DNA of 64,000 nt, taken from contig CAVTQG010000049.1 of the NCBI GenBank assembly GCA_963736785.1, positions 93,532 through 157,531 of the forward strand. Reading direction: 5' to 3'. Each line of letters opens with the position of its first letter. The stretch's first letter is position 1. The notes beneath the pieces were generated by a model that had not been told where the DNA came from, ran no database searches, and worked only from the letters and a program-made list of their open reading frames with translations. Made by a program: the position numbers and the translations under genes. Source of the stretch: an uncultured Spirochaetota bacterium (GTDB taxonomy: Bacteria > Spirochaetota > Spirochaetia > SZUA-6 > DRHE01). This document shows, in pieces, positions 1 to 20,480 of the stretch.

Positions 1-3000
1 CGAGGATCTCATTCGCCGGGTTATATGCATACTCGATGCGCCCCCAGCCGTTGGCCTTGAAAGCCCGGTTGGAACGCTCATCGTAGCCGAACTCTTCGGT
101 CCATACCCGTTGCTGCACCTCCAATCCCCGCCGGCTCTCCGAGATCAGCCCGTAGGCATCCTCCAGCTCCTGCCCTACCTCCCAGGACACCTCCAGCCTG
201 CCGGCAAACTCGGTGGCCCCCTCCCCAATCCCCACCTCCCAGCGGCCCTTCATCGCCTGGCCCGGCTTACGAGAAAAAGATAGCAACTCCTCCTGCAAGT
301 CTTCTCGAAGTCGCCCAGCTTCGCCCCCCTGCAGTGCAGGCAACGCGAAGCTAACCTCCTCTTTCTTCCCCGCTCGAAACTCCGGCCCCAGCCCCAGGGT
401 GAGCCTCTCCTGGAAATCCTCCAGCTTCTTGTCGCTTTCAAACGGATAGCGCACGGCTTTCAGCCGCCCCACCTCGTCGTAATCATAGGCGGTGATCCGG
501 CCGCGCTCATCCACCTGATAACTGCGCTGCCCGGCCGCGTTGTACAAATAGGCCAGTGAGCGCAGCTCCTCATCCCTTGCACCCCGCTCGCCGCGGTTCT
601 TCAGCACCGTCACCCGGCCGGCCGCATCGTAGCGGGTCTCCGTGCTTACTCCATTGGCAAGCCTTCGGCTCACCTCCCGACCCAGTGCGTCGTAGCCGAA
701 GCGGGTTACTCCCCCTTCCGGATCGCTCAGCTCCAGCAGCTCGTTCCGCTTGCCATAGACATAGGCGATCCTGCGCTGATCTTCCAGCCAGCTCAGCTCC
801 AGGCGGTTCCCGGCCGCGTCATAAGAGTAGCCGATCCCCTGCCCGGCGCCGGCATCCTCTGCGTGGACTAACCGGTCCAGCTCGTCGTAGCCGTACTCCA
901 GCCGCCCGCTGGCGTTCTCCGCCCCGATGAGGTTGCCAGCCGCATCGTAGGCGAAGCTCTTCTCCGTGCCCTCCGCATCGTGCACCCTCACCAGCCGGCC
1001 CATAGGATCGTACTCGTACAAGGTGGCCTGCCCGTTGAAGTCCGTCTTGCCGGACAGCTCGCCGTCGGGCTGGTAGGAATAGCTTTGCTCCGAGCCCAGG
1101 CGGTTGCGCTCCCGCACCAGGCGGTTCAGCGAATCGTATTCGTAGCCGTACAGCCCGCCGGAAGCGTCGATCTCGCCGGTCAGGTTGCCCATCGCATCAT
1201 ACAGATATCGGATCGCCTGCCCCAGCGCATTGGTTTTCTTCACCAGACGGTTCAGCGAATCGTATTCATAGGAAGTGGTGCGCTGCAGCTCATCGCGCGC
1301 CACCAGCAGGTTTCCGTTGGGGTCGTACTGAAAGCTTTTCACCTCTCCCAGCGGATCGATCTCCTGCAACAGGCGGCCCAGCTCATCGTATTCGTAGCTC
1401 CTGCGGCCTTCCAGCGCATCGATCACCCCGGCAAGCTGACCCAGGTAGGTGTAGCCGTAGCGCGTGGCGTTTCCATAAGGATCCACCCTTCTAGACAGGC
1501 GGTTCAAGGCATCGTACTCGAAGAGGGTCGTGTTGCCGTTCTCGTCGCTCCTGCCGGTGAGGTTGCCAGCGGGGTCGTAGGCGTATTGCACCACACCGCC
1601 CAAGGCGTCCACCTTTCGGACCAGCCGGCCCAAAAGATCGTACTGGTAGGTAATGCCGTGGCCGTTCTTGTCCGTCCGCCCGGTCAAGAGCCCCCGCGGA
1701 TCATAGTCGAAGCGCTCCTCGGCTCCAACGGCGTCGGTGAGGCGCATGAGCCTGCGCATGGGGTCATACGCGTAGCGGGTCACCTGGCCGTTCTTGTCGG
1801 TCAGCTCGAGCAGGCTGCCCCGGGCATCATAGTCGTATGACCGCGTGTAGCCGTAGGGATCAGTCTCGCGCAGCAGTCGGTTGAGCGCGTCATACTCGAA
1901 CTGCGCGCTCCGGCCCAGGCGGTCGGTAACCGTGATGATTCGCCCCGCGGCGTCGTAACCCCTTAGCTCCGTGTTGCCCTCCGGGTCCCGCAACCACTCC
2001 AGCAACCCCGTACCCGTGTACCCGTATTCGTTGCGGAAACCCTTGGGGTCTGTCAAAGCGACAAGCTGGCCGGCCGTATCGTATTCGTAGCGGACCACCG
2101 CTCCGGTTTCCACCTGGCTCTTGGAGAAGAGCCGACCGCGCGGATCATAGTCATAGCGCGTGCGATTAGCTCCGGCGATGATCTTTTCCACCATTTTCCC
2201 ATCGCCGCGGTACAGATACTCCACGGTTTCTCCCAGCGGGTTGGTGGCCTTGCGCAGCAGGTGGCGCTTGTCGTATTCGAACTGGGTGCGATTCCCGTTC
2301 TTGTCCACAACCATGACCAAGTCTTTGCGATTGCTGTATTGGTAGCGCTCCTCGCAGCCCAGCGCGTCGAGGACGCGCACCATCTTGTTGTCGCCGTTGT
2401 ACTCGTAGCGGATTGTCGCTCCTGCCGGATCGGTATAGGCCATCACGTTGCCAAGCGCGTCGTTCTCGAAGTGCTTTTCGGCTCCCCCGGCATCGCGCAC
2501 CAGGCTCACGTACCCATTCGCGTCGTAACCGTATTCGGTCCGGAATCCCAACGGATCGGTGAATGCCGTCACCTGTCCCCGGCTGTCGTAGGCGTAGCTG
2601 ACACGGGAATTTCCCGGATGGCGGATCTCCAACAGATTGCCCTGGCTGTCGTAAAGGTAGTCGGTGGAGTAGCCCAGCTTGTCGGTGTAGGAATCGATCT
2701 TATTGAAGGCGGTGTAGCTCCACCGCTCCACGGCGCCCTCCGCATCGATGGCCTCGATCCTGTTGCGCCGCTCGTCGTAGCTATAACGGGTGACCCGGCC
2801 CAGCGGATCAGTTTCGCGCACCAGGTTGTCCATTGCGTCGTATTGCCGGTCCACGGCGCTGCCGTCAGCGTATTCTACGCGCGTGATGCGGTAGCGCTCA
2901 TCGTAGTGATAACGCTCCAGAACCCCGGAGGCGTTGATGTACTCCGTATATCGCTGCTGGGGGTAGTAACGGAATTGCTCGATGTGGCCTTCCTCATCGC

Positions 3001-5089
3001 GGGTACGATCCACCACCATCCGGCCGTCCAGCTCGACGTAGGAATACTCCTGAAAGCTGTCGTCAGGTTTGATCACCGTTGTGAGCAGCGGACCGCTGTA
3101 GCGATAGCGTACGGTGTGTCCCTCCCCATCGGTCACCTCCGCCAGCCGGCCTGCGGCGTCATAGCCGTAGCGGAAGTTGCGCCCAAGCGGATCAATGATC
3201 CCCACGATTCTGCCGCCTTCCCGCTGCAGGCTCATGGAGCGGCCGAAGCCGTCGCTGACCCGTTCCAGATGCCCAGCATCCGAGTACGCCAGCGAAATTG
3301 TGTTCGAGTTGGTGTCCATGATCGCAGTTAGACGCCCCAGGTAGTCGTAGCGGTAGGCTGTGCCGTCCTTGCGGGTGCGCAGGAAGCCGCCCTCCTGCAG
3401 CAGCCTGAGGGTATCCTCGGTGGGCAGCGCCGGGGTCAGCGAGGAACCGGAGGGATAATAGTTGAGCGTGCCATCCGGCAGCCTCTGCCCGGACTCATAA
3501 TCCGGCTGCTCGTCCAGGAGAAACAGCAGGGCCACCCCGTTTTCGTCGATGAGGCTGAGCGCTCCGTTTCCGGTGCGCTGCAGGCTGGCGCGGTCCGTCT
3601 CGTCGACCACGTACCGGTTGAGCCCGGCATTGGCCGAAGCCAGCGCCGCCTCGCGGTCGGCTTGCTCCGCCAAAGCCCTCAATTCCAGGCCGGCAACGCG
3701 GATCCCATCGATCTGGAAACCGCTTGCCTGAAGCTGGTCCCGCGCGGCCGAAAGCGAGGCCAGCAGTGCCTGCGCCTGGGCATATGCGGCCTGCGCTCCC
3801 GCCAGCGCCGCGCTAGCCCGGTTTATCAGCGAGCTGTTGTTGACGCCCTGAGCTTTCTGCAGCGCTGTTTGTGCCGCGCCCACCGCGGCGCTCGCCGCCT
3901 GTACCGCCTCAGCCGTTTGGGGGATGGCAGTAGAAAACACCTGCATTGAGCGCAGGTACTCGGCGTGAAGTCGCTGGTAGCTTTGCTCCGCTTGGGCCGC
4001 ATCGCTCCACAGTGCCGCGGCCTGAGCCGCGGCATCGGGCTTCACCCCCCGGACGATGCGGGTGTCGTAGTTGAAGGTCCATCCCGGACCGAAGGAGCGT
4101 GCCCCTTGGCGGTTGCTCTGGTAGCTGCGCGACACCTGAATAGTCATGCGAGCGAAGCGGTAGCTAAGATCCTCGACGGCTAGGGAAGAAGCTCCCCGTA
4201 GCCAGGCGCACCGGGTCCCCTGCCGTGGGTGTGCCGTCCGCCAATGCGATATCCGCTTCGGTCCCTTGGGCCTGGGTTTGGCTTTCCGCAGCCTCTTGGG
4301 CGCGCGCCACGGCTTGATCCTGTGCTTCTTGAGCAGCTTCCAGCTCATGAGCGGCATCCGCTGCGGCCTGCTGGGCTCGTGCGATCTCCTGGCCACTCGC
4401 CCCTGTTTCCACCGCTTCCTGAAGGTCGTGCAAGGCTCATTCCAGAGCCGCCTCTGCCGCAGTGACCGCCTGCTGCGCTTGCGCTAATTGCTGCTGATCA
4501 TCGCCGTCTGGAGGCTCAGTAGGCGGGGGGCCAGGCGGAGGTGCGCCCTTGTTATGCACCAGAATGCCGTTGGCGAAGAAGTTGGAGTTGCCGCTGATGC
4601 CCGCCAGGTTGTAGGTCTGGACCCCCTGCCGCACCTCCTCGATCCCGGCAACTGCGACCGCCTGCAATCCATTGTCTGTGTGCCTGTAGACGCTATCGCC
4701 CACCTGCAGCAGGCTTACTTCCAGGCCGTAGCGCTGGCGGGTCAAGTCCGGAAGGTAGGAAGCCCAGCCCTTGCCGAGCACATAGTAGGGTTCGGTGTTG
4801 GTGTTCTGGTTCACCGTGCCGTCGCTGAACGATATCCGGATTGTGAAGTCCTCCCCGACTCCGGTGTGGTACAGGCCGATGACGCGCAGCACTTCCTGTG
4901 GTTCCAACTCCATGGTATCGAGGTTGAGGGTAAGGACGCGTTGACCTGCGACGATATCCTCGATGGGAACGGAGGTACGTGTCGGCTAAGAGGATTTGGG
5001 TGCCGGCTATGAAGCAATCGACCTACTTCAAGCTCAGCCCACACCCTGCCGGAGAGCGCACCGATAAGTAGCGCGACGGCCGCGATCAT
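1..5089 (-). CDS. RHS/YD-repeat family protein, partial (C-terminus beyond the left edge). The N-terminal region carries a signal peptide and a Hint (intein-like) domain, and is disrupted by frame changes and an in-frame TGA.
   Basis: Minus-strand frame with codon tops at n = 1 mod 3 is open from ~4198 to position 1. Translation gives the RHS-start motif (DPVRLATGSFF in the neighbouring frame, then LAVEDLSY ... RSYQSNRQGARSFGPGWTFNYD) followed by YD repeats such as YEYDSLNRLV and RYDYLGRL. The plus-strand ORFs 980..1840 and 2261..3331 are its antisense shadows (repeated QRIVF). Upstream frame (4437..4985): VPIEDIVAGQRVL ... FFANGILVHN. A signal-peptide-like ORF MMIAAVALLIGALSGRVWA begins at 5089. 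Joining these needs a frame change near 4975-4990, read-through of a TGA at 4437-4439, and a +1 shift in the run ttcttcCctagc near 4185. Confidence 0.75.
4437..4985 (-). other. Hint / bacterial intein-like (BIL) domain segment, N-terminal to the RHS repeats. Its N-terminal block is interrupted by two TAG codons (4986-4988, 5007-5009).
   Basis: Translation: ...PIEDIVAGQRVLTLNLDTMELEPQEVLRVIGLYHTGVGEDFTIRISFSDGTVNQ...VGDSVYRHTDNGLQAVAVAGIEEVRQGVQTYNLAGISGNSNFFANGILVHNKG. It ends in the canonical Hint C-terminal motif (NGILVHN). A Pro-rich linker (PPPGPPPTEPP) and an A/Q/E-rich low-complexity tract follow, and the tract continues across the TGA at 4437-4439. Confidence 0.6.
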
Positions 5090-5148
5090 CACGGCACGCG
5101 GGAGGTGTCACTCTGAAACAGGCCTGGAACCTTGGCTCTCACACGCAT
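5089..5148 (-). CDS. 19-codon leader ORF (MRVRAKVPGLFQSDTSRVP) translationally coupled to the RHS signal-peptide ORF
   Basis: ATG at 5148 is preceded by AAGGAG at -7. Its TGA stop (5089-5091) overlaps by 1 nt the ATG (5087-5089) of the downstream signal-peptide ORF (tgATG arrangement). It lies downstream of the TTGCAT-N17-TAGAAT promoter. Confidence 0.3.
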   Translation of the reverse strand: MRVRAKVPGLFQSDTSRVP

Positions 5149-5237
5149 GGTACGCTCCTTGCACATCTGCGAAGGAAGTTCTACCTCATGGTTGAGCGCT
5201 GAATTTCTGCAGGCTATCGATTCTATTCTTGGGACAT

Positions 5238-5266
5238 ATTCTATACCCGGCGAAGAAGAAATGCAA
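5238..5266 (-). promoter_or_regulatory. Sigma70-like promoter for the leader ORF and RHS gene
   Basis: On the minus strand: TTGCAT (5261-5266), 17-nt spacer, TAGAAT (5238-5243). A second TAGAAT copy lies 12 nt downstream. The region is locally AT-rich in a ~70% GC background. Confidence 0.45.
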
Positions 5267-5361
5267 ATTTTCCGCCGTTGTGGCCATCAGTGAAGGATGG
5301 GGATGGCCCGGGCCTGGAGGGCTCTGAGACCGCCGGAAGGCGCGCTGAACGCGAGGCGCGC

Positions 5362-6868
5362 CTACCGCACCACCGCCTTCTGGCTCAGGTCCTGGGCGTC
5401 CAAGGCCAGGATGTCCCGCGCGGCGGAGCTCACGTACACCCGGTCGGCGAACAGGGAAAGGCTGGAATCCCGGTCCACGGCCACGGAGCTGGAGGCGGCC
5501 AGCTTGAGGTTCTCGTCGAAGCGCCCCAGCCGGAACTCGTTGCCGCTCTTCAGCACCGCGTAGATCGCCCCGCCCTGGATCAGCACGAAGCTCTCCGCGT
5601 ACACCTCTTCGGAGCAGCGCTTCACCGGCTCCAGGGTGAGGGGATTGAGCAGCAGCAGGTGCGCCGCAGCGCCGGCCGATCCTTCCTGGGCCACCACCAG
5701 CAGGGAATCCTTGAAGAAGTGGAAGGCCCGGCCCCGCACGTAGGCCACCGGCGAGGTGAGCTTCACGCTGGGAGGGCCGGGGTCCAGGATCGACAGGGTG
5801 CCGCTGATCGAGCCGGAGGCGCTCGCGCGGGCGCACCTTCAGGAAGTAGAGCTGGTCGGCCAGGGCGAAGGCGCCCGCCGCCGCGGCGCCGGTCCCGGCC
5901 CCCGCGGTCTCCCGGGCCTTCTCATCGGCGATGATCCCGCCGCGCTCCTCGGCCACCTCCGCCTCCTTGGCGGCGACCTCGGCCTGCTTTTCGGCCACCG
6001 CCGCCTCGGCCCGCTTCACCTCCTCCTCCTGCCGGGCCACCTCCTCCTGGGCCCGGGCTTTCTCCTCCGGGGTGGTCGCCGCGGCCAGCTCCGCCTGCTT
6101 CTGCTCCAGCTCGGCCTTCTCCCCGGCCAGGTCCTTCTGTGCCTCCTGGACCTCGGCCTGCTTTTCCTCGATTTCGCGCTCTTTCAGCTCCACCATGTCC
6201 TTGCGCTCCTCCAGGCCCTGGTCCGGCTGGCGGCGCAGCTCCTCGATCACCTCCTTCTCCGTGAGCTCCGTGGTGGACAGGCTGCCCAGGCGGCCCTCGG
6301 CCGCTCCGGTGGCGAGGGGGACCAGCAGGCGGGTGGCGCCGGGCCACTCGTAATAGCGCGTGGAAATCCCCGCGTTCTGCGGGGTCAGGTGGGACATGAC
6401 CACCGCCTTGTACTTCTGCCCGAAATAGCCAAGGTTGCCGCGGTACACGGCATTGTAAACCGTGGCGAAGCGGGCCAGCAGGCGGGCATCCGAGGCGTTG
6501 TAGGCGAAGGCTCCCTCCAGGTAGCCGGCCAGGATGCGCCGCACGTTTTCGATGTGGTCGACCCGGGCCGCAGCCTCGATGGACAGGATGTCCGCGTCGA
6601 ACTTGCCCTGCTCGCGCGGATCCAGCGCGCGCAGGATCCGGTACTTGTCCAGAAACCGGCCCGCGTTCCCATCCTGCTGCAGGCTGCCGGCCAGCAGGAA
6701 GCCGATGGCCTTGATCTCCTCGGCCGTGTCCACGCGCTCGTAGGGCCCGGAGTAGTTCTCGAACTCGATCTCCTGGCCCGCACTGCGCAGCTCCTCCTCG
6801 GCCACCTGCTGGGCCCCGGCAGGCAATCCCAGCGCCAGCAGAATCCCGAACACCAGGCACGCTTTCAT
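5362..6868 (-). CDS. Secreted coiled-coil protein of unknown function (frame shift near 5830)
   Basis: N-terminus MKACLVFGILLALGLPAGAQQ (signal peptide). Central E/K/A-rich heptad-like tract (KEREIEEKQAEVQEAQKDLAGEKAELEQKQAEL...). A coherent C-terminus (…SPVAYVRGRAFHFFKDSLLVVAQEG…DAQDLSQKAVVR*) is only reached by switching to the frame of ORF 5362..5766 near 5830. ATGA overlap with the upstream gene at 6865-6868. Confidence 0.6.
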
Positions 6869-8578
6869 GGCAGCCTCCTTTGCAGCTCCTTCAAGATCAG
6901 GCGGGCCCGCTCGGCCACCCGCCGGGAACCTCTGGCGGCCAGCTCGGCCAGGGCCCGGAAATCCTCCGGCGCGGTCCGTCCGGGGCCTTCGCCCAGGATA
7001 CGGGCCAGCGCCTCCAGCCCGCCCAGCACCAGCGCCTCCTCGGCGTCCGGCCGCCGCGCCTCGCGGGACAGCAGGCGCCCCAACTCCCCGTCCGGGTCCG
7101 CGCCGATGCGGCCCAGGGCCTGGAAGGCGGCCAGCCGCGCGGATAGGTCCGTCTCGCGCTGAACGGCGTCCAGCAGGACCCGGCGGGCCCCTTCGGAGGC
7201 GAGGTCGCCCAGCAGGAGGTAAGCACGCGCACGCACCCGCGGGTAGGCGGGCAGCCGCGCGCCGGAGCTGCGGGCCAGGACGGTGACCCCCTCCGCGGTC
7301 AGGGCGCCCAGGACCCCCTCCAGCACCGCCAGGTGCACGGGCAGGAAGCGCTCGCCGGACAGGTGACGCTGCACGTCATCCAGGGCCTGCTGCTTCAGCG
7401 CCTCCTCCTCGGCGAAGGCCAGCTCCCGCAGGGCCAGGGTGGCCGGCCCTTCCAGGTCCGTCAGCCCGCCGGAGCGCCCGGTGTGCTGCACGTCGTGGTG
7501 GGCCATGGGCCAGGCGCTCGCCGCCGGGCCGGCCGCCGGGCCGGCCCCGGGGCCCGCCGCCTGTGCCCGCAGGCAGTACAGGACCCAGTCCTCGGAGCCC
7601 AGGTACAGGCTCCCGTCCGGGGCCAGCGCCGCCTGCTGCGCCTGCTCCCCGGCCTCGAAGCTGCCGGCCGGCTCCAGGCCCCCGTCGCGGACGCGCAGGA
7701 CCAGCAGGCTCCGGGCCGCAGTAGCCGCTATTACAGTATCGTCACCTGCGGCTATTGCGGCATAGCGCACCGGCGCCTCCAGGGCCAGCTCGGCCAGCCG
7801 CGCTCCCTCCGCCGACAGCAGGTACACCTTGCCGTTGGCGGCGCCGGCGAAGATCGTGCCGTCCGGCCGCAGCACGGGCTGGGCGGTCTCGGCCGGGATG
7901 GGGTAGCTCCACAGCAGGGCGCCTTGGGGCGAGAGGCGGTGAATCCCGGCCGCGCCGATCAGGATCGTGCCGTCGGCGTCCGCCGTCGGGGCGCTCACCC
8001 GCCCGGGCAGGGCCACCTCCCAGCGGCGCTCCCCCGTCGGGGCCAGGGCCAAGCAGGCGCCGGTCGGCGGTGGCCAGGTACAGGGTGCCGTCCGGGCCGA
8101 TGGCCGGCGCCGCGGCGGCCTCGGCCCTTAGCTGATAGCGCCAGCGCTCCTCGCCGCGCCAGCTCAGGGCGAACAGGGTGTCGCCGGCCGGCAGGTAGAT
8201 GGTGCCATCCTGCCCCAGGGCGGGGGTGAGCGCGGGCCGGGAAGGGGCGGTGAAGCTCCAGCGGGCCCGGCCGCCCGGACTCACCGCCCACAGGCGCCCG
8301 CTGGCGGTGCCGGCCAGCACGGTTCCGTCGTAGGCCACCACGGGGCTGGCCGAGGGCCGGGAACCCAGGGGGAATCTCCAGCGCTCGGCCCCCCCGGGGT
8401 CGACGGCGTACAGGAAGCGGTCCGCGGAGGCCAGGTACAGGGTGCCCCGGTGGTCGAGCGCCGGCCGGAAAAGCAGGGCGCCGCCGGTCACGAAGCGCCA
8501 GGACAGGCGCAGGGCCTGCCCGTCCGCCGCCCGGCCGGCCAGGGAAAACAATAGGATGCTAAGGAGCAAGGACTTCAT
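6865..8578 (-). CDS. Secreted PQQ-like beta-propeller repeat protein with a C-terminal HEAT-like repeat region (frame shift near 8050)
   Basis: Signal peptide MKSLLLSILLFSLAGRAADGQA. Repeated DGT[LI]Y[LA]…DGxLYAV motifs are typical of PQQ/BamB-like propellers in both ORF 7742..8578 and ORF 6865..8052, and the two overlap in different frames. The C-terminus carries helical repeats (LAARGSRRVAERARLILKEL). Confidence 0.6.
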
Positions 8579-11438: not shown

Positions 11439-12803
11439 TCAGAAGCTGAACGCCGCCTTCAGGTACAGCTCTGCTTCGTCCTTCTGCCCGCCGAAGGCGG
11501 TGCCTGCCGCCCCGGTGAGCCAGTGCAGGCCGACCGTGAGACGGGCGGCGTCCACCGGAGAGAAACTCAGCTCCGGATTCAAGGCCAGTCCCCAGGAGCC
11601 GGCGATGTCCGCCAGGTCGTCCACCTCCAAGGCTACGCCCAGCGGGCCTATGGTCAGGCGGTCGCGCAGCAGCTTCCATTCCAGGCCCAGCAGCAGGTAA
11701 TCGTTCAGGGCTTCCGAGCTGTTTTCATTATAGAAGCCGTGCACGTATTGCAGATTCGCGTAGGGTCCCCCGGTGAAAGTGTAGTCCAGGCCCAGGGCCC
11801 ATTTGGCGTACCCCTCGGCCCGCGTTTGCTCCAGTCCTCCGCCGACCGCCAACGTATCGGTAACCAGGACGTAGTCCGGCCAGAACAGGGCCGCCTCCCC
11901 CCAGACCCCGATGCCGAACAGCTCGCCGGCCACGTCCAGCCCGACGACGTGCTGCCGCGGATAGCCCAGCTCCACCTCCAGCGCCGGGTCCGGAAGGACG
12001 GTCACCTTCGTGGCCGCCGGCAGGCTCTGCCGCCCATACAGGTAGCTGGCCGCGAGGTCCCAGCCCCCGACCGTGGCGGCAAGACGCGCGCCCAGGGTCG
12101 TGTTCTGCCACAACCCGTCGCCGGGAGTGTCGAAGGTGAAGCTCAAGGGCGCGGCGGGCAGGCCGTCCGGCATGCTAACCGCTGAAGAGGCGTCGGCGGG
12201 CAGCAGGGCCGGCGTGAAATAGGGAACGTAGACGGCCTCCAGAGTCAACACGGAGAAGTAGGCCTTCAGCTTCACGGCGTCACTGGCCAGGCGCCGGCCG
12301 TAGTCCCAGGGGTCTTCCAGGTTCAGGGGATTCACGTTGTCGACCACGCTCACTCTCTCGGCCGTGCCCCAGACAATGCGTTGGCGGCCTAGCCGCAGAT
12401 CCAACTGGGGCAGCAGGAAGCCGTGCACGTCGGCGTAGGCCTCCACCAGCTCGAAGTCCATCGGGGCCAGGACCTCCAGGGACGCCAGGTCATCCAGTGC
12501 AGCCAGGGTGCCCGGCAGCCCCTGCGCTTTCAGCGCCGCCTCCGCGAACAGGCGCAGCCGCTCCGACGGCTGGGCCTCCAGGTGCAGGTCCAGGCGCAGC
12601 AGGCCGGAGGCGATGTCGCCTTCGGCAAAGCGGAAGTCCTCGCCCGCGGGCAGGCGCAGCTCCCCGCGCAGCTCCCCGCCCCACTCCAGGCCCTGGGCTC
12701 CGGCGGCCGGGCCCGCGGCCAGCAGGACGGCGATAAGAGCTCCCGCGGCCAGCAGCCTCGCGGCCCGCGGCCGGCAGACGACGTGCCTGTTTCGCATCGC
12801 CAC
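11439..12803 (-). CDS. Outer-membrane beta-barrel protein (uncharacterised family)
   Basis: 454 aa with an N-terminal signal-like hydrophobic segment (LLAAGALIAVLLAAGPAAGAQG) and alternating amphipathic strands. Terminal residues …LYLKAAFSF (C-terminal Phe is typical of outer-membrane beta-barrels). Confidence 0.6.
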   Translation of the reverse strand: MAMRNRHVVCRPRAARLLAAGALIAVLLAAGPAAGAQGLEWGGELRGELRLPAGEDFRFAEGDIASGLLRLDLHLEAQPSERLRLFAEAALKAQGLPGTLAALDDLASLEVLAPMDFELVEAYADVHGFLLPQLDLRLGRQRIVWGTAERVSVVDNVNPLNLEDPWDYGRRLASDAVKLKAYFSVLTLEAVYVPYFTPALLPADASSAVSMPDGLPAAPLSFTFDTPGDGLWQNTTLGARLAATVGGWDLAASYLYGRQSLPAATKVTVLPDPALEVELGYPRQHVVGLDVAGELFGIGVWGEAALFWPDYVLVTDTLAVGGGLEQTRAEGYAKWALGLDYTFTGGPYANLQYVHGFYNENSSEALNDYLLLGLEWKLLRDRLTIGPLGVALEVDDLADIAGSWGLALNPELSFSPVDAARLTVGLHWLTGAAGTAFGGQKDEAELYLKAAFSF

Positions 12804-12814
12804 CTCTCGCGCTT

Positions 12815-13554
12815 TCAGCGTTCCAGGTATCGGGTGGTGAACAGCTCCTCGGCCAGGCCGGAGTCGAAACGGAGGTTGGTGAGCACCATGCGGGTGCGGT
12901 GATCCGTGCCAGGTCGTGCATCTCCCGCTCGCGGGCCACCCAGTAGCCCTTGATCTTCTCCACCGTGCTCGAGGTCAGACGGCGGGCCAGCAGCCCCTTG
13001 CGGTCGTAGTATTCCACGGTCACGAGGACGAAGTTGTCCTTGAGGGCCCACACCCGGAGTCGGGACCAGGCCCTCTGCTGAGCGTCGCGCGGGACCAGGT
13101 CCAGCACGTAGTGCCGTTCATCGCTCGGGCCCAAGCTGGCCGTGTACTTGTCCGCGTACTTCGTGGCCTCCATGTCCTCGTAGGTGAAGTCCGTGCCGGC
13201 GAAACTGGAATTCTTGACGTGCGAGGCGATGCGCTTCACCTTCTTGTACGCCGGCAGGTACAGGTAGATGGAGCCGTCCGGCAGGGACAGCACGCTGATG
13301 CCCTTTTGGTCCGCCGGGGACAGGAAGCGGGCCATGCGCCGGTCGGCGCCCTTTTGGTAGATGCGCAGGGTCCGCTCGCTGCGGTTGCCGGCCTTGTCGA
13401 TCAGGATCAGGCTGGCCTCGAAGTCCTGGTCGCGGGGAGCGGCCGTCGCCGCGTCGATCTTTTCCAAGATCTGTTCGGCGCTCAGGGAATCCTGGGCCCA
13501 GGCACTGGCGGCCAGCAGGCAGAACGCGGCGGCCAGCAGCAAAGCTCTTTTCAT
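12815..13554 (-). CDS. LolA-like outer-membrane lipoprotein-sorting protein (MMPL-associated); frame shift near 12900
   Basis: Internal start MKRALLLAAAFCLLAASAWAQ at 13554 overlaps the MMPL stop by 4 nt. The family resemblance is to lipoprotein-sorting LolA-like proteins encoded beside HpnN-type MMPL exporters. The C-terminus …TRMVLTNLRFDSGLAEELFTTRYLER* is only reached via a frame shift. The 422-aa ORF prefix (13555..13758) is a GC-frame artefact. Confidence 0.6.
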
Positions 13555-15881
13555 TTCGTTTCCTCTTCTTTCCGGGCCCGCGCGGTTTGCAGCCTCAGAC
13601 CCCAGGCGCGCCGGCGGGCGGGCGCGCGGACTTTGATCTTCAGCTTCTCGGCGCCAAGCGCCAGGATGGCGGGCAGCAGCGACAGGGCGCCCGCCCCGGA
13701 GCTGAGCATGGTCACCACAATCAGCAGGCCGAAGTTGCGCAGCGGCAGCAGGTGGCACAGGAGCAGGGACAGGAAGCCCACCGACACGGTGAGCACGTTG
13801 ATGAGGATGGCCTTGCCGGCGGTGTTCAGGGTGCCTGTCAGGGCGCTGCGGTGGTCCAGGCCGCGATCGAGCTCGTGCCGGTAACGGCTCAGGAAGTGGA
13901 CCGTGTAGTCGATGCCCATGCCCATGGAGATGCTCCCCAACAGCACCGTGGTCACGTCCAGGGGGATGCCGGCCACTCCCATGACCCCGAACAGGAGAAA
14001 CAGGGTGAAGCTAATGGGCACCAACCCGATCAGGGCCCCGGCCACGGAACGCACCAGCAGCAGGTTGCACAGGAACATGAAGGCCACCGCTGCCGCCAGG
14101 CTCCACAGCTGACTGGAGGCGATGGCCGAGTCCAGCCGGGAGTAGATCACCGCCGTCCCGCTCAGCCGGAAGGTTCCGGAGCCCTGCCCCAGGGAAGCGA
14201 GGTAGGCCTTGGTGTCTTTAAGCAGGGAGTTGAGCTGGCGGTAGTTCGGGTTGGCCAGCGTGCCCTGGATCAGGGCTTCCTGCCGGTCCGGCCGCACCAA
14301 CTGTTCCAGAATCGGCTCCCCCTCCAGCAGGAAGAACAGGCTGGCGGCCTGCTCCCGCGTGGCCGGCAGCTCTCGCCGGTCCACCAGGGCGAAGCTCATC
14401 TCCTCCAGCAGCTCCACCGCCGAGTGCACGTTGGCCAGCTGCGGGCGGGTTTTGAGGAAACTCTCCACGCCCTTCATTCTCGCCAGCACCCGCGGGTCCT
14501 GCACATCGCCGGTGACCAGCACCTGCAGGGTGGTGGAACCGCCGAAGTTCTCCTTCATCATGCGCTCGGCCTGGCGGATTTCCGTGCGGCGGCTGAAGTA
14601 CGACAGGATGTCCACCTCCCTGCGCACCAGGGGCACGGCCGCGATGCTGGCCGCGGCCAGGACGGCGCCGACAGCGAGAATGAGCCGGGCGCGCCGCAAC
14701 ACAAAACCGCCGAAGCGCTGGAAAATCCCCGGTCCGGCGCGCCGCGCGGGCCGCTGCCCGCCATCTTGCTGCCCGGCTGCCGTCTGCCTCTCCGCAGCCG
14801 GCGGCGAAAGGTAGGACAGCACCGCGGGCACGAAGGTCAGCGACACCACCAAGGCCAGCAGGACCCCCAGGCTGGAGAAGATCCCGAACTCGCGGATCAT
14901 GGTCAGGTAGGAGCCGAAAACGAAGGAGAGGAAACCGGCCATGGTCGTGAGCCCGGCCAGGAGTACGGGGCCCGTAACCAGGGAGAGGGATCGGGCCGCC
15001 CGCTCCTTGCGGTTCTCCCCCGGCGGCGGGGTTTCGCCGAAGGCGCTGACCACGTGGATCCCGTAGGCGCTGCCGGTGGCCAGCAGGACCACCGGGATGA
15101 TGTTGGTGATGATCGAAAAGGGAATGTGGAGCAGGTTCATGATGCCGATGGTCCAGACGGTGCTGATCAGCACGGAGGCCAGCGGCAGCAGCACGCCGCG
15201 CAGAGTCCGGAAGCTCAAGGCCAGGGCCAGCAGGATCAGGGCGACGGCGATCGGCACAAGCACCAGGAATTCGCGCGAAACCAGGCGGATGATCTCCGCC
15301 ACCTGGAAAGGCAGGCCCGCGAAGTAGAGCCTCTCCTTGATCCCCAGCCCCTCCACGGCCTGGCGCATCCGCCGGGCCGTGCTCGCCGCGTCCGCCTCCT
15401 CCCGGATCCGACAGGCCAGGATGGTCACCCGGCCGTCCGCGGAGACCAGGCGCCCGCGGTACATGGGCTTGGCCAGGGTGTAGCCCCGCAGGCCCTCCTC
15501 TCCCGCCTCCAGGAGTGGTGCGATGTGTAGGTCATCTTCCACCTTGCGGATGTCCAGGACATTGGCCAGGCTGGTGACCCACTCCACGCCGTCCACTTCT
15601 TCTAATGCCGCAGTGAGCTTGCGCACCGAGGCCAGGGTGGCTGGGGCGAACACGTCCTCGGCCTCCAGCCCCACCACGGCGAGCTGGGTCCCGCCGTACT
15701 GCTGGCCGATGTAGCGGTTCAGCTGCACGGCCGGGTCTCCGGCCGGCAGGTAGCTGAAGATGTCGGCGTTGATGCGCATGTCCTTCAGGAGGTAGCCCAG
15801 CACGGCCGTGATCAGGGCCGTAGCGACCAGGATCGGCAGGCGCAGGCGCACCACGCCCCGGGCGAAACCGTTCGACTTCAT
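13551..15881 (-). CDS. MMPL-family RND-superfamily exporter (HpnN-like)
   Basis: 776 aa with two blocks of ~6 TM helices separated by large periplasmic loops. MMPL-like segments such as LPFQVAEIIRLVSREFLVLVPIAVALILL and GMGIDYTVHFLSRYRHEL. Overlaps TetR (4 nt) and the LolA-like gene (4 nt). Confidence 0.8.
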   Translation of the reverse strand: MKSNGFARGVVRLRLPILVATALITAVLGYLLKDMRINADIFSYLPAGDPAVQLNRYIGQQYGGTQLAVVGLEAEDVFAPATLASVRKLTAALEEVDGVEWVTSLANVLDIRKVEDDLHIAPLLEAGEEGLRGYTLAKPMYRGRLVSADGRVTILACRIREEADAASTARRMRQAVEGLGIKERLYFAGLPFQVAEIIRLVSREFLVLVPIAVALILLALALSFRTLRGVLLPLASVLISTVWTIGIMNLLHIPFSIITNIIPVVLLATGSAYGIHVVSAFGETPPPGENRKERAARSLSLVTGPVLLAGLTTMAGFLSFVFGSYLTMIREFGIFSSLGVLLALVVSLTFVPAVLSYLSPPAAERQTAAGQQDGGQRPARRAGPGIFQRFGGFVLRRARLILAVGAVLAAASIAAVPLVRREVDILSYFSRRTEIRQAERMMKENFGGSTTLQVLVTGDVQDPRVLARMKGVESFLKTRPQLANVHSAVELLEEMSFALVDRRELPATREQAASLFFLLEGEPILEQLVRPDRQEALIQGTLANPNYRQLNSLLKDTKAYLASLGQGSGTFRLSGTAVIYSRLDSAIASSQLWSLAAAVAFMFLCNLLLVRSVAGALIGLVPISFTLFLLFGVMGVAGIPLDVTTVLLGSISMGMGIDYTVHFLSRYRHELDRGLDHRSALTGTLNTAGKAILINVLTVSVGFLSLLLCHLLPLRNFGLLIVVTMLSSGAGALSLLPAILALGAEKLKIKVRAPARRRAWGLRLQTARARKEEETK

Positions 15882-16477
15882 GGCTGCACCCCCAGGGACA
15901 CCCCCAGGGAACCGCGGGTCATGAAGTCCACGAAGCCGATGATGTCCTCGGTGCGGATGCCCAGGGAGCTGTGGCGGGTGATTCTCACCGCGTTGAGCAC
16001 GCCCAGGAAGATCACGATCAGGCCGGTGCGCAGCATCTGCCGCGGGACCCCCGGCCAGCCCGATGCTTCCGGCCGGTCGGCTTTCAGCAGCGAGGACACC
16101 AGGTCGGTGAGCTTCTCCACCTTCTCCTCCAGGCGCGTGTAGTCGATAGCCTCGGACAGCAGGATGTTGATCAGGGGCAGGTCCTGCAGGAGCTCCGGGA
16201 GGAATATGTCGACGAGCAGCTTCAGCCCGGCCTGGGTATCTTCCACCCCGGCCATGGCCGTCTCAATGCGGGAGTACAGGCTGCTCCAGCCTTCCTCCAC
16301 GATGGCCCGCACGATCTCGTCCTTGCTCTTGAAGTAGGTGTAGATGGTGCCGACCGACATCCCGGTCTCCCGTACGATGTCGGCGATCGAAGTGTTCACA
16401 AACCCCTTGCTGGAGAACAGCAGCTTGGAGGACTGCAGCACCGCGACCCGTTTGTTTTCGTCCTTTTCCCTGGCCAT
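15878..16477 (-). CDS. TetR/AcrR-family transcriptional regulator
   Basis: 199 aa. N-terminal HTH SIADIVRETGMSVGTIYTYFKSKDEI is the TetR signature. RBS AAGGAGA lies upstream of the ATG at 16477. Confidence 0.85.
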   Translation of the reverse strand: MAREKDENKRVAVLQSSKLLFSSKGFVNTSIADIVRETGMSVGTIYTYFKSKDEIVRAIVEEGWSSLYSRIETAMAGVEDTQAGLKLLVDIFLPELLQDLPLINILLSEAIDYTRLEEKVEKLTDLVSSLLKADRPEASGWPGVPRQMLRTGLIVIFLGVLNAVRITRHSSLGIRTEDIIGFVDFMTRGSLGVSLGVQP

Positions 16478-16622
16478 TCCTTCTCCTTAAAAAATGAGCG
16501 CTCGTTCTTTTATAGGACCTAAAAAGAGGCGCCCGGTTGCGCCTGCCTAATAATAAAACGAGCATTCATTCTTTTATTGGAATATATACTCACCCGACCT
16601 GTTTTTCAAGGCCTCTGGGCAG
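16478..16622 (-). promoter_or_regulatory. AT-rich regulatory region upstream of the TetR-MMPL operon. It holds a sigma70-like promoter, two ~30-bp direct repeats with an imperfect palindrome (candidate TetR operators) and a hairpin plus T-run.
   Basis: In minus orientation: TTGAAA (16604-16609), 17-nt spacer, TATATT (16581-16586). Direct repeats tccaataaaagaatgaatgctcgttttatt and tcctataaaagaacgagcgctcatttttta. The second contains the palindrome AAAAGAACGAGCGCTCATTTTTT centred on GAGCGCTC. Hairpin aggcgc-aaccgg-gcgcct (16536-16553) is followed by ctttttta. Confidence 0.5.
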
Positions 16623-19460
16623 CTAGACCGCGACGGCCCTCCGCCGGTCCCGGGCGCGCAGCACCGCTTTCACCGCTTCGGCGCCGATGGAGGCCGGCAG
16701 CGCCAGGGGGATGATCAGGGCCCAGTGCTTCCAGCCCAGGAAGGTGGTGTGGAAAATCGGGTCCAGGAAGGGCACGTAGATGATGGCCAGCATCACGCCG
16801 AAGGAGCTGAGGAACGCCCAGATCATGTTGCGGTTGCTGCCCAGCCCCAGACGCCAGATGGGCACCCTTTCGGAGCGGCAGGTGAAGGCCCGGAACAGCT
16901 CGGAGAGCACCAGGGTGGTGAAGGCCAGGGTCTGGGCCGCGGTGATCTTGTGCGCGTCCACCGCCCCGGGGAACACGTACAGGGCGATGACGAAGGCAGC
17001 CAGCGTGGACACCATGTCCAAAATGCTCTGCACCCCGATGCCCCACCACATGCCGCCGGTGACGATCGGCTCCTTGGGGTGCCGCGGGGGCCGGTCCATG
17101 ACCCCCGGCTCCGGGGGCTCCATGCCCAGCGCCAGCGCCGGCAGGCCGTCGGTCACCAGGTTGAGCATCAACAGGTGGATCGGCAGGAACGGCAGGGCCG
17201 GCAGGCCGAGCATGGTGGCCAGGAAAACGATGAGGATCTCCCCGACGTTGCAGGACAGCAGGTAGTAGACGAACTTGCGGATGTTGGCGAAGATGACCCG
17301 TCCCTCCTCGATGGCCGAGACGATGGAGGCGTAGTTGTCGTCGGTCAGCACCATGTCCGCGGCCTCCTTGGCCACGTCCGTGCCGGTGATGCCCATGGCC
17401 ACGCCGATGTCGGCGCGCTTGACCGCCGGGGCGTCGTTCACCCCGTCGCCGGTCATGGCCACGATCTGGCCCTGGGCCTTCAGGGTGTCCACGATCTTCA
17501 CCTTGTGCTGCGGGGAGACCCGGGAGTACACGTCCAGCACCGGGGCCAGCTTGCCGAACTCCGCGTCGCTTAGCTTGTCCATCTCCTCGCCGGTCAGCCC
17601 GTCGGGGCCGGGCGTGAACATGCCCAGCTCCCCGGCGATGGCGTGGGCGGTGCGCTTGTGGTCGCCGGTGATCATGACGGTCTTGATTCCGGCCTTGCGA
17701 GCCGTCTCCACGGCCGCCTTGACCTCGGGACGGGGCGGGTCGATCATGCCCTCCAAGCCCAGCAGGGTGAGGTCGGTTTCCAGCTCCTCGGCCTCCAGGC
17801 GGCGGGCGGCCACCGCCAGCGGCCGGCAGGCCACGGCCAGGACGCGCAGCGCCTGGTCGGCCATGGCGTCGTTGGCCGCCATCACCGCCTTGCGGTCCGC
17901 GGCGGTCAGGGGCTTCGGGGAGCCATCCTCCAGTATGTGCGAGCACTTCTGCAGGACCAGGTCGGTGGCGCCCTTGGTGAAGGCCATGTAGGGCGAAGTG
18001 AGCGCGAAGGGGCGGTGGCCGCCCTTGCCTTCGGACCAGGCATGCACGGTGGTCATGCGCTTGCGCACCGAGTCGAAGGGCACCTCCCCGACGCGCGGCA
18101 GGACCTTCTCCTGCTCCGGGCGCCACAGTCCGACCTTGGCCGCCGCGACCACCATGGCGCCTTCCGTGGGGTCGCCCACCATGCGGAAGCGCTCTGCTTC
18201 CGTCTTTTCCAGGCGCGCGTCGTTGCACAGGGTCCCGCCCAGCAGCGTGCCCGTCAGGGCGTGCAGACCCTCCAGTTTCACCGGCTGGCCGTCGACCTCC
18301 AGCCGCCCCACGGGCTGATAGCCGCGGCCCTCCAAGATGTAGCTCACGCCCCCGGCCCACACCCGCACCACGGTCATCTCGTTCTGCGTCAGGGTGCCGG
18401 TCTTGTCCGAGCAGATGACGGTGGCAGCGCCCAGGGTCTCCACGGCCGGCAGGTTGCGGATCAGGGCGTGGCGGTGCAGCATCCGCTGGGTGCCCAGCGC
18501 CAGGCACACGGTCACCACGGCAGGCAGGCCCTCGGGCACGGCCGCGATGGCCAGGCTCACCGCCGTGAGGAACATTTCCAGGATGTGCTGGCCGCGCAGC
18601 AGGCCCAGGCCGAACACCACGGCGCAGATGGCCAGGGAACCGTAGCCCAGCCACTTGCCCAGCTGGTTCAGCTTGAGCTGCAGGGGCGTCTCCTCGGTCT
18701 CCACCGTGCGCAGCATTTCCGCGATCAGCCCCAGCTGGGTCTTCACGCCCGTGGCCGTGACCACGCCCGTGCCGCGCCCGTAGGAAATCACCGTGCCCAT
18801 GAAGGCGCTGTTGATGCGGTCGCCGATCGGCACCTCCCCGGACAGGACCTTCTCCGCCTCCTTCTCCACCGGCACCGACTCCCCGGTGAGCGCGGCCTCC
18901 TCGATGCGCAGGTTGGCGCTCTCGGTCAGCCGCAGGTCCGCCGGCACGTAGTTTCCGGACTCCAGCAGCACCATGTCGCCGGGCACCAGCTCGCGGGCCG
19001 GGATGTCCGTGAGGTGGCCGTCGCGCAGCACCCGGGCGCTGGGCGCGGCGATCTTGCGCAGGGCCCGCAGGGCGTTTTCGGCCTTGCTCTCCTGGATCAC
19101 GCCCAGGATGGCGTTGATCAGCACGATGCCCAGGATCGCCGCCGCGTCGATGTATTCCTCCCCGCCCCCCTCGGGCCGCAGGATGGCGATGGACACGGAG
19201 ATGGCCGCGGCGATCAGCAGGATGATCACCAGGAAATCCTTGAACTGCTCCAGAAAGCGCTTCCAGAAGGGCGTTGGCGCCTCCTCGGGCAGCTCATTAG
19301 GCCCGACCTGCTCTAGCAGCGCCCGGGCCTGCTCGGAGGAAAGACCTTTTTCGGGGTCCGTGTTCAATTTCCGGACGACTTCCGCAGCCGGAAGGTTGAA
19401 AGCCTGGGCTCCTGAGTTGGGCCATGGTGAGAGTGGATTATATTCGCGGAGTCCGACCAT
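16623..19460 (-). CDS. P-type cation-transporting ATPase (P2-type, Ca2+/cation ATPase-like)
   Basis: 945 aa with the diagnostic motifs [12 protein letters not shown] (phosphorylation site), [35 protein letters not shown] and ~10 TM segments. The start ATG at 19460 has no clear RBS, so the start is moderately uncertain. Confidence 0.85.
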
Positions 19461-19497
19461 GTAAAGATTTGATGAAACGGGGGCTTGCGCGGTGCTG

Positions 19498-20480
19498 CTA
19501 TTCCGGCTCCGGTGTGCGGTTCGCGGTGAGCAAGAGGGTGACCGTGGTCCAGACGACTTCCTTGCCGGACAGCTGGGCTGCGGCCAGCGCGCGCAGGCGC
19601 TCCAGCTCGCTCGGCGGGCAGGCCCAGGCGGCTGCCGTAGTTGCCCCGCTCCGCGCGGCCGGACGGCTCTCCCAGCCAGCGTTCCAGGTCCTCGGCGCGG
19701 ATCCAGCGCGGGCCGGCGTGGGACTCCGGCACCGCACCCGCCGCCTGCAGCCCGGCCTCCCCGGCGGCGCGAGTGTAGTCCTCGACGTCCCAGGCGGTCA
19801 GCGGGTCCTCCGGGTCCCGATAGACCCTCTCCTCGGCTTCCCGCAGCCGCTCCACGAACTCCGGCGGCTCACCGCTAAGGTCCAGCAGAGCCGCAAGGTG
19901 CGTGCCCCGGGCGGGCAGCAATTCGGCCAGCGAAAGCCGCCCGCCGGGGGCCAAGAGGTCGGCCAGCAGGCGCAAGGTGCCCGGCTTGTCCGGCTCCCGA
20001 GCCAGGGCGCCGCGCCCGACGATGGCATCGAAGCGCACCGCCGCCGCATCGCCCTGGGCAAGGAGGCGGGGCAGCTCGCCGAGGGCGCCGGCCAGCACGC
20101 GCGGCCTCTCCAGCTCCGACAGGGCCTGGGCGCGGGCATCCAGCAGCTGCGCCTCTGCTTCGTCGCGGGCTAGGGCCCACACTCCGCCCTCCGGCACCCG
20201 CCGCAGCGCCTCCCAGGCCAAGAGGCCGTCGCCGGCGTTGAGGACCAGCACGCGCTGGTGGCGCTGGAGGTCCAGTGCGGAGAACAGGCGCTCCCGCTCG
20301 GCCGAAAGCCTCTCCCCGGCGTTGCTCACCGCCCGCTCCAGCCACAGGTCGCGGCTCTTGCGGCCCGCGCTGAAGGTCAGCACCTCCCGGGGACGGCTCT
20401 CCGCCTCCAGCATGGCGGCCAGCTGCGCCTCCCGCCGCCGCTCCACCTCGGCCCGGACGCGCGCCTCCGCGCCCTCCGCC
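19498..20480 (-). CDS. Class I SAM-dependent methyltransferase-like domain, possibly fused in frame to the C-terminus of RarA (frame shift near 19640)
   Basis: Motif I-like HQRVLVLNAGDGLLAWEAL, then DAIV and LLAPGGRL (Rossmann MTase fold). No stop separates it from the corrected RarA C-terminus. The true C-terminus …LERLRALAAAQLSGKEVVWTTVTLLLTANRTPEPE* (ORF 19498..19737) is reached after a frame shift. Confidence 0.45.

Follow-up and report, generated by a model that had tools for sequence, protein, structure and literature searches.

A bacterial intein-like Hint domain behind the signal peptide of a predicted Sec-exported RHS toxin from an uncultured Spirochaetota bacterium

An RHS gene with a Hint domain at its N-terminal end

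This work deals with a stretch of 64,000 nucleotides (hereafter, the window) from an uncultured Spirochaetota bacterium (GenBank assembly GCA_963736785.1, contig CAVTQG010000049.1, positions 93,532 to 157,531), and in particular with one RHS gene on its minus strand, which extends from 5148 to 2 and leaves the window at the left edge. Our reading, to which we give a probability of roughly 0.65, is that this segment encodes a single Sec-exported RHS/YD-repeat polymorphic toxin, that the gene is intact in the organism, and that the bacterial intein-like (BIL) Hint domain of the protein is self-cleaving. The order of its parts is signal peptide, a spacer of 4-6 residues, BIL-type Hint domain, Pro-rich disordered linker, a helix of ~90 aa, DUF6531, a helical insertion of ~150 aa and the RHS shell (Table 1). 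RHS toxins and Hint/BIL domains are both well known; what departs from the standard picture is the position of the Hint which, if active, would process the other end of the protein.

An earlier note on this DNA had described an RHS/YD-repeat open reading frame (ORF) of more than 4 kb on the minus strand, preceded by a signal peptide, a Hint domain, a Pro-rich linker, an A/Q/E-rich tract and the RHS start motif. All these parts are present, essentially at the coordinates it had given, and the RHS frame is open from 4483 to 2 (1494 codons, of which ~1394 are truly coding, according to a three-frame translation of 1-5300). This frame matched Pfam RHS_repeat with 494.6 bits in 21 stretches and NCBIfam YD_repeat_2x (TIGR01643) with 412 bits in 12 stretches. 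The proposal that signal peptide, N-terminal Hint, linker and RHS repeats belong to a single gene is borne out by a second assembly, in which all of them lie in one ORF. This ortholog locus (L005; European Nucleotide Archive assembly ERZ25039502, contig_50505) was found by a search with the linker-to-RHS region of the window once its frame had been repaired, and is 96.5% identical to window positions 6533-1 at the nucleotide level, over 6.5 kb. Across the equivalent of 4430-5090, where the window frame is broken, L005 is one ORF from the signal peptide into the first RHS repeats. Its product, P0166, has 699 aa without interruption, is annotated as AXH, DUF6531 and RHS_repeat, shows 96% protein identity to the repaired window reading and reads MRVRAKVPGLFRVTSPGAVMLAAVALLLGALSGRVWA-TEVD-CFIAGTQ…NFFANGILVHNKSAPPPGPPPTEPPDGG…ALEGALHD…DPVRLATGNFFLAVEDLSYRF…, on into the RHS repeats.

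The start of P0166 also settles the N-terminus of the window protein. The separate leader ORF of the earlier note (MRVRAKVPGLF…) turns out to be the signal-peptide n-region and thus the true N-terminus; the promoter that the note had placed upstream is a consensus match and no more. The hydrophobic N-terminus MMIAAVALLIGALSGRVWA (5092-5036, minus strand) and the residues preceding it, with four K/R before a 12-aa stretch of mean Kyte-Doolittle hydropathy 2.7-2.8 and a VWA motif, look like a Sec-type signal peptide, that is, the N-terminal trafficking element of an RHS toxin. In relatives, the spacer that follows has 4-5 residues and ends in D or E (TEVD, VEIE, VLVE, YPVDD), and in five N-termini from four lineages a Sec-type signal peptide is followed by the first cysteine of the Hint (Cys1) 4-6 residues on.

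The structure model of P0166 gives the same succession of parts: a signal-peptide helix (residues 16-31), the Hint (42-196, with a predicted local distance difference test score, pLDDT, mostly of 72-93), a disordered linker (199-211), helices at 213-244 and 249-299 (pLDDT ~90), DUF6531 strands (314-357) and long helices at 368-432, 435-471 and 479-506, after which the RHS strands begin. An intact relative, P0002, has a matching Pro-rich linker, HNKGGDPPPPPPPP. The DUF6531 element (PF20148) scored 51 bits when the shift at 4184 was repaired and 29.7 bits without repair. The region aligns with the equivalent element of P0167, a PAAR-Rhs protein, from which the ~150-aa helical insertion is missing although it shares DUF6531.

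Since the ORF runs off the left edge, the RHS-associated core lies outside the window, whose copy represents the 5' ~88% of a gene for a protein of ~1950 aa. In L005 the gene continues for ~250 aa to an Rhs_assc_core (TIGR03696, 76.5 bits, full profile) ending …NNNPVNCVDPLGL, in which VDPLGL corresponds to the DPxGL autocleavage motif. No Pfam match that would assign a toxin family was obtained in the ~500 nt of frameshift-ridden L005 sequence after DPLGL. The gene following the RHS toxin (L005 7776-8733), which has frameshifts too in this assembly, codes for a protein with an FGE-sulfatase domain (140 bits) and a lipoprotein-like N-terminus (…LIISSAC), and could be an immunity candidate. On the other side, the adjoining upstream gene is a Borrelia_P83 homolog (Pfam, 268 bits), which by itself points to a spirochete as the probable source of this high-GC DNA. 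There are no type VI secretion system (T6SS) or toxin complex (Tc) genes near the RHS gene, no second Hint or RHS copy and no Rfam family were found in the window, and positions 1-5400 contain only a trivial tandem repeat of 1.9 copies.

Table 1. Parts of the RHS gene and sites at which its frame differs from the ortholog locus L005, in order along the minus strand of the window.
Feature	Position	Strand	Remarks
Promoter-like TTTGCA-18-TAGAAT	5267-5238	-	Consensus match only; 1 site against 0.1 expected in shuffles
Shine-Dalgarno AAGGAG	5160-5155	-	6-nt spacer to ATG; read from the sequence
True start codon ATG	5148-5146	-	Agrees with the start of the intact ortholog ORF P0166, MRVRAKVPGLF…
Sec-type signal peptide (predicted)	5148-5036	-	Repaired form MRVRAKVPGLFRVT.PGAVMIAAVALLIGALSGRVWA; broken by extra bases at 5118 and 5099
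Excess 1	5118	-	TTTC, TTC in L005; in signal peptide
Excess 2	5099	-	GCGT, GGT in L005; in signal peptide
Spacer, predicted signal-peptidase site to Cys1	5035-5017	-	7 nt more than L005 (6 in frame + 1)
Excess 3	5035-5029	-	7-nt difference, six bases in frame; third frame shift
Hint domain, BIL / Pfam-AXH type	5016-4551	-	Cys1 codon TGC 5016-5014; His-Asn CAT AAC 4556-4551
Excess 4	4980-4978	-	ACGT, ACT in L005; breaks the Hint frame
+1 Lys	4550-4548	-	Directly after VHN
Pro-rich linker KGAPPPGPPPTEPPDGDD	4547-4497	-	Disordered in both models (P0002, P0166)
A/Q/E-rich helical segment, ~90 aa	4496-4221	-	Interrupted by TGA at 4437-4439; GGA (Gly) in L005
Nonsense codon	4439-4437	-	TGA, GGA in L005
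DUF6531, conserved N-terminal element of RHS proteins	4220-4049	-	GDPVRLATGSFF-LAVEDLSYRF…GPGWTFNYD; extra C in CCC run 4185-4183
Excess 5	4184	-	CCT-AGCC, CTT-GCT in L005; in ttcttCCCtagc
A/Q-rich helical insertion, ~150 aa, between DUF6531 and first RHS strands	4042-3583	-	Three long helices predicted
RHS/YD-repeat shell	3582-2	-	ORF uninterrupted, passes the left window edge

Identity of the Hint domain and its possible activity

The repaired Hint begins with VDCFIAGTQILLAD, with Cys1 at 5016-5014, and ends in NFFANGILVHN followed by Lys. The earlier note had anticipated a match to Hint-family profiles, and this was obtained in part: the domain exceeds the cut-off of Pfam AXH (PF08517; 45.3 bits, cut-off 33) and matches BIL structures, but Hint_2, Intein_splicing and PT-HINT all remain below their Pfam cut-offs. 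PT-HINT (PF07591) reached 18.9 bits against a cut-off of 27.7, with the domain at residues ~44-198, at the opposite end from the toxin. When the family profile was compared with solved structures, the BUBL1 BIL2 domain of Tetrahymena (6tmm, 6y75) was matched over its full length with an E-value of 2e-8; the BIL of Clostridium thermocellum (2lwy, 1e-7) and PI-SceI were matched as well, and so were AXH structures, in a range from ~1e-7 to 2e-5 (Ataxin-1, 8e-8, and HBP1). Fold comparison was done with P0002, which is 61% identical. Its AlphaFold model (mean pLDDT 85, 94-98 in the domain) superposes on BIL2 6y75 with a template modelling (TM) score of 0.87 and a root-mean-square deviation of 2.0, followed by 2lwy, mini-inteins and hedgehog 1at0, and no AXH structure is among its top 50 fold matches. 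From profiles and model together, the N-terminal domain is assigned to the bacterial intein-like Hint fold. As a separate observation, the bacterial Hint subfamily as such exceeds the gathering threshold of Pfam AXH, and its profile E-values are alike for AXH and BIL structures; a full-text search of the papers available to us found none that mentions AXH together with inteins or Hint domains.

Cys1 (in CFIAGTQ) is invariant in the relatives, and so are, in the alignment of all close relatives, the C-terminal His-Asn and the +1 Lys. The TxxH motif of block B is not kept throughout: the window protein and P0003 have T-N-T-E and P0166 has T-N-S-E, whereas P0002 and P0174 retain T-N-T-H. The domain departs from an intein in its +1 Lys, in an N-extein made up only of the signal peptide and 4-6 residues, and in the lack of a homing endonuclease. 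The earlier note had envisaged autoproteolytic release or splicing of an N-terminal module. Of these, cleavage is plausible, given Cys1 and the His-Asn pair. Splicing is not to be expected of a domain with Lys at +1 and hardly any N-extein, and cleavage on the N-terminal side is probably weak in this lineage, in which Glu has taken the place of the block-B His.

A mechanism can be proposed from these features, although we regard it as having about an even chance of being correct. The protein would be exported by Sec, after which the Hint would cut its own C-terminal junction, between VHN and K, by Asn cyclisation, in the way of A-type BIL domains. This cut would free the linker-helix-RHS cocoon from the end next to the signal peptide, as ZU5 autopeptidases at the N-terminus have been proposed to do in other toxins of the RHS class. 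Delivery of the C-terminal toxin by the RHS shell would follow, once the usual cleavage at DPLGL by the aspartyl protease had taken place.

The main functional rival to self-cleavage is that the gene is intact but its Hint is non-catalytic, acting as a binding or structural module as the eukaryotic AXH does, for instance in adhesion or in docking to an export partner. AXH, a non-catalytic family, is indeed the best match in Pfam, the window protein, P0166 and P0003 have Glu instead of the block-B His, and N-terminal cleavage would release nothing useful from an N-extein of this size. Against this, no close relative has lost Cys1 or the C-terminal His-Asn-Lys, catalytic BIL domains and mini-inteins are the solved structures that come nearest, with AXH outside the top 50, and a disordered Pro-rich linker comes right after the Asn, as expected of an exposed scissile junction. 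On balance a non-catalytic Hint seems unlikely, with perhaps one chance in four.

Distribution of the arrangement

Outside this lineage, a beginning like that of the window gene was found only in fragments. P0002, P0174 and P0003 (locus L001) have a signal peptide, a short spacer, the Cys and the Hint as in the window gene; P0002 also has HNKGG, poly-Pro and a helix, and P0003 a linker, a helix and a DUF6531 fragment. The subfamily to which these Hints belong has 7411 matches with E ≤ 1e-3 among 1.84 billion representatives, at any position in the host proteins. None of the ten top proteins with an N-terminal Hint contains RHS, with PKD, Laminin_G or a further Hint instead, and just one weak RHS signal was seen in proteins with a C-terminal Hint. 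A scan of genome contigs with the repaired Hint yielded only two archaeal relatives, of 40-46% identity, and a scan of the JGI metagenomes with the subfamily alignment gave no match.

The fragmentary locus L001 (174-1700, equivalent to L002) comes from the metagenome-assembled genome GCA_964490725.1. It is degenerate: its signal peptide is followed by a Hint with frameshifts, a poly-Gly linker, a helix and part of DUF6531, which runs into a region called Peptidase_M23 in L002, and no RHS repeats were seen after it. Its sequence is 100% identical in the Logan assembly of SRR14802574.

With these N-termini at hand, it could tentatively be suggested that an N-terminal BIL Hint constitutes an undescribed processing or trafficking module of Sec-exported RHS toxins, present in at least four lineages as signal peptide, 4-5 residues, Cys-Hint, HNK and linker. 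It would work by Asn cyclisation alone and, once the toxin has been exported, detach the RHS cocoon from the end nearest the membrane; the form with Glu in place of His would be limited to C-terminal cleavage. We put this forward as a possibility that is rather less likely than the mechanism outlined for the window protein itself.

Frame lesions: consensus errors or a decayed gene

Comparison of the window with L005 at the codon level revealed five net single-base excesses and one TGA, all in the first 970 nt of the gene (Table 1), and no lesion in the 4.2-kb RHS ORF. The frame change at 4980, the TGA at 4437-4439 and the shift in ttcttCCCtagc, which had been pointed out in the earlier note, are real, but three further excesses (5118, 5099 and 5035-5029) had escaped it, and the frame shifts with respect to L005 are five rather than two or three. 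Frame switches were located with a codon-usage frame tracker; frame plots of third-position GC content (GC3) and lists of ORFs gave too much noise in DNA of such high GC content.

In our view the five excesses and the TGA are probably consensus errors of this assembly, and the gene would be intact in the organism. Indel errors had already been preferred over a pseudogene in the earlier note, and that preference is favoured by low ratios of nonsynonymous to synonymous substitutions (dN/dS), by like lesions in neighbouring genes of housekeeping type and by the complementary lesions of other assemblies. By the Nei-Gojobori method, the window with its frame repaired gave dN/dS values against L005 of 0.26 across signal peptide and Hint, 0.13 across linker and helix, 0.19 in the DUF6531 region and 0.17-0.27 in RHS; purifying selection has therefore acted on the repaired frame during most of the time since the two sequences diverged. 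The window copy keeps every residue that is invariant in the Hint family. Besides, L005 is intact at the broken sites of the window and carries ~11 indels in the RHS body, precisely where the window ORF stays open, so that the lesions of both assemblies are complementary. A third assembly (L007; ERZ25039554, contig_93912), reached via a TetR gene, is 98.2% identical to window positions 26452-13718 and then diverges, without covering the RHS locus. It reads through at 23435, 23265, 22962, 20478 and 19609, where extra bases in the window switch the coding frame, and has lesions of its own where the window is continuous. Outside the RHS gene there is about one frame-breaking excess per 2-2.5 kb, and the five excesses in the 5.15-kb RHS segment are near that rate.

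Several observations weigh against our reading of the locus. Six lesions fall in the first 970 nt of the gene and none in the next 4180 nt, whereas uniform random error predicts otherwise; the TGA is a substitution, unlike the insertion that is the typical lesion of this contig; and the related locus L001 has frameshifts that are identical in two assemblies, from which it follows that decay does occur within this gene family in some genomes. The change of the block-B His to Glu could mean that catalysis by the Hint is altered or that its role is purely structural. Neither an immunity gene nor secretion-system genes were identified near the RHS gene, and no full-length protein with signal peptide, Hint and RHS was found outside the lineage in the genome, JGI metagenome or top-protein checks. 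With regard to the clustering, a pile-up of errors at the 5' end is what would be expected from a mixed-strain consensus, since this is the most divergent region: the synonymous divergence (dS) between the window and L005 is 0.12-0.23 in the signal peptide/Hint/linker region and falls about five-fold, to 0.034, in the 3' RHS body. The fall in dS along the gene also suggests a mosaic or recombinant history of the locus.

The observations on clustering, on the TGA and on L001/L002, which is truncated besides being frameshifted, are the ones that speak for a genuine pseudogene, together with the known tendency of RHS loci to decay and rearrange. The insertions and the nonsense codon would then be real, the strain would make no toxin, and the RHS ORF would survive by chance or because inactivation is recent. 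However, the lesions are of the same type and of a similar overall rate as those in P83, MgsA and other genes of the contig, dN/dS stays at 0.13-0.26 in the repaired frame, every family-invariant Hint residue is retained, the long RHS ORF is free of lesions, and L005 is intact where the window is broken and vice versa. We consider a pseudogene improbable, though clearly to be taken more seriously than the two alternatives that follow.

The first of them divides the locus into two genes, one whose product is a small, secreted Hint protein that ends at the TGA and, downstream of it, an RHS gene in its own right. A 158-aa window ORF (P0001) does end at this TGA, and many Hint-family proteins are short; but the A/Q/E-rich helix is unbroken across the TGA, DUF6531 lacks a preceding start codon or ribosome-binding site, and P0002 likewise runs from the Hint into linker and helix. 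Such a division is highly improbable, and it was discarded on account of L005, which has GGA at this site and a continuous ORF. Equally hard to sustain, and if anything even less credible, is that expression is regulated by programmed +1 frameshifting, stop read-through or phase variation. The five shifts all go in the same direction, by one extra base each, which could evoke recoding, yet no slippery motif or repeat tract is common to the sites, the 96.5%-identical ortholog has none of the shifts, and identical types of lesion are found in unrelated genes of the contig. As for recoding of the TGA, this codon is the standard stop here and ends 14 of the 20 window genes checked; an ordinary TGA and five shift sites without a common motif leave recoding out of the options.

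Comparison with known systems

The earlier note had called an N-terminal Hint unusual, and the literature agrees with it, since the Hint autopeptidases of polymorphic toxins sit near the C-terminal toxin (Zhang et al., 2012, Biol Direct 7:18, PMC3482391). The window gene shares with the RHS toxins of the Sec/type II secretion class a signal peptide, central RHS repeats, a core ending in DPxGL and a variable C-terminal region, but its Hint comes directly after the signal peptide, whereas that survey describes Hint only before the toxin, and no pre-toxin Hint was seen here. At the N-terminus of RHS toxins, the same survey reports ZU5 (and PrsW), which probably release them at the cell surface (PMC3482391). 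With these the window protein has in common a (here putative) autoprocessing domain at the N-terminus of a large RHS protein; however, ZU5 is a CxH thiol autopeptidase whose fold is unrelated to that of Hint, which uses Asn cyclisation or a thioester, and the window gene is without the SpvB or beta-propeller (TcdB/TcaC) context of the ZU5 systems. The gene is thus for the most part an ordinary RHS polymorphic toxin in which the Hint sits where ZU5 usually does.

According to a review (PMC7765530), A-type BIL domains need no +1 nucleophile in order to cleave at their C-terminal Asn. The window domain resembles them and PT-HINT in its Hint fold, Cys1, C-terminal His-Asn, non-nucleophilic +1 residue and occurrence in secreted, hypervariable hosts, and differs in its location at the extreme N-terminus of the mature protein, its PT-HINT score below the cut-off, the Glu in block B and the conserved +1 Lys. 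The closest solved structure, both by profile and by fold, is that of BUBL1 BIL2 from Tetrahymena thermophila (6y75, 6tmm), which is eukaryotic, only ~26% identical, and flanks a ubiquitin-like domain instead of a toxin. The AXH of Ataxin-1/HBP1 (PF08517) is the top-scoring Pfam family, with structures matched at ~1e-7 over the N-terminal two thirds of the domain, but it is a non-catalytic nuclear module of eukaryotes that has neither Cys1 nor His-Asn.

There is also a parallel with the Rhs effectors of the T6SS, such as RhsA of P. protegens and TseI of A. dhakensis, which have an RHS cocoon with a conserved N-terminal element and remove their N-terminal region by self-cleavage, a step that can be likened to the Hint cleavage predicted here. 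This N-terminal autocleavage is known to be important for the T6SS effectors, though its mechanism has been described as still unknown (PMC8765631). In those effectors the cut is made inside the cocoon and the N-termini are of PAAR/prePAAR type, in contrast to the signal peptide and dedicated Hint of the window gene, which has no T6SS nearby. If N-terminal BIL Hints do constitute the processing module tentatively suggested above, it would represent a Hint-based analogue of ZU5 release and would give the processing of RHS toxins at their N-terminus a defined mechanism. A toxin that has a recognisable self-cleaving domain there would offer a simple system in which to test the role of N-terminal cocoon release. 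From a practical point of view, the case illustrates that a multiply "frameshifted" gene in a long-read-style metagenomic contig can be recovered via a second, independently erroneous assembly.

Other genes of the window

The Borrelia_P83/100 homolog next to the RHS gene (5362-6868, minus strand) is split by an extra C at 5819, where L005 reads through; L005 has its own extra A at 5779, and a composite of both sequences is intact. Beyond it, positions 6865-8578 (minus strand) contain two overlapping ORFs with matches to PQQ-like beta-propellers, the downstream one with a weak HEAT-repeat match in addition, and a frame switch at ~8040; they are probably one gene split by a lesion. In the MgsA/RarA-type AAA+ gene (19364-21761, minus strand) the coding frame changes at an extra C of the window (20478). 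In L007 a single ORF comprises MgsA_C and, after it, ~300 aa of C-terminal sequence that gives a weak methyltransferase-like match, and there is a deletion at 21054.

Matches to YCII and to a truncated DUF6596 (the C-terminal domain of an extracytoplasmic function (ECF)-type sigma factor, profile 1-45 of 102) were found between 44400 and 46700 (minus strand), with four or five successive switches of the coding frame, a lesion cluster like that at the 5' end of the RHS gene. The trimethylamine-methyltransferase (MTTB/MttB-family) gene at 49909-51283 (plus strand) occupies two frames, split at ~50140 (Pfam profile 33-96 and 116-472), in what looks like another single-base lesion.

Synteny with the 98%-identical contig_93912 ends at ~13718, just past an MMPL gene, and L007 continues with unrelated sequence (12761-17953); the segment that holds the RHS gene thus differs from one strain or assembly to another. 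Finally, ARAGORN called a 95-nt tRNA-Arg(CCT) at 56865-56959 (plus strand), inside a protein-coding region and with no Rfam tRNA match at the gathering score, which is probably a false positive.

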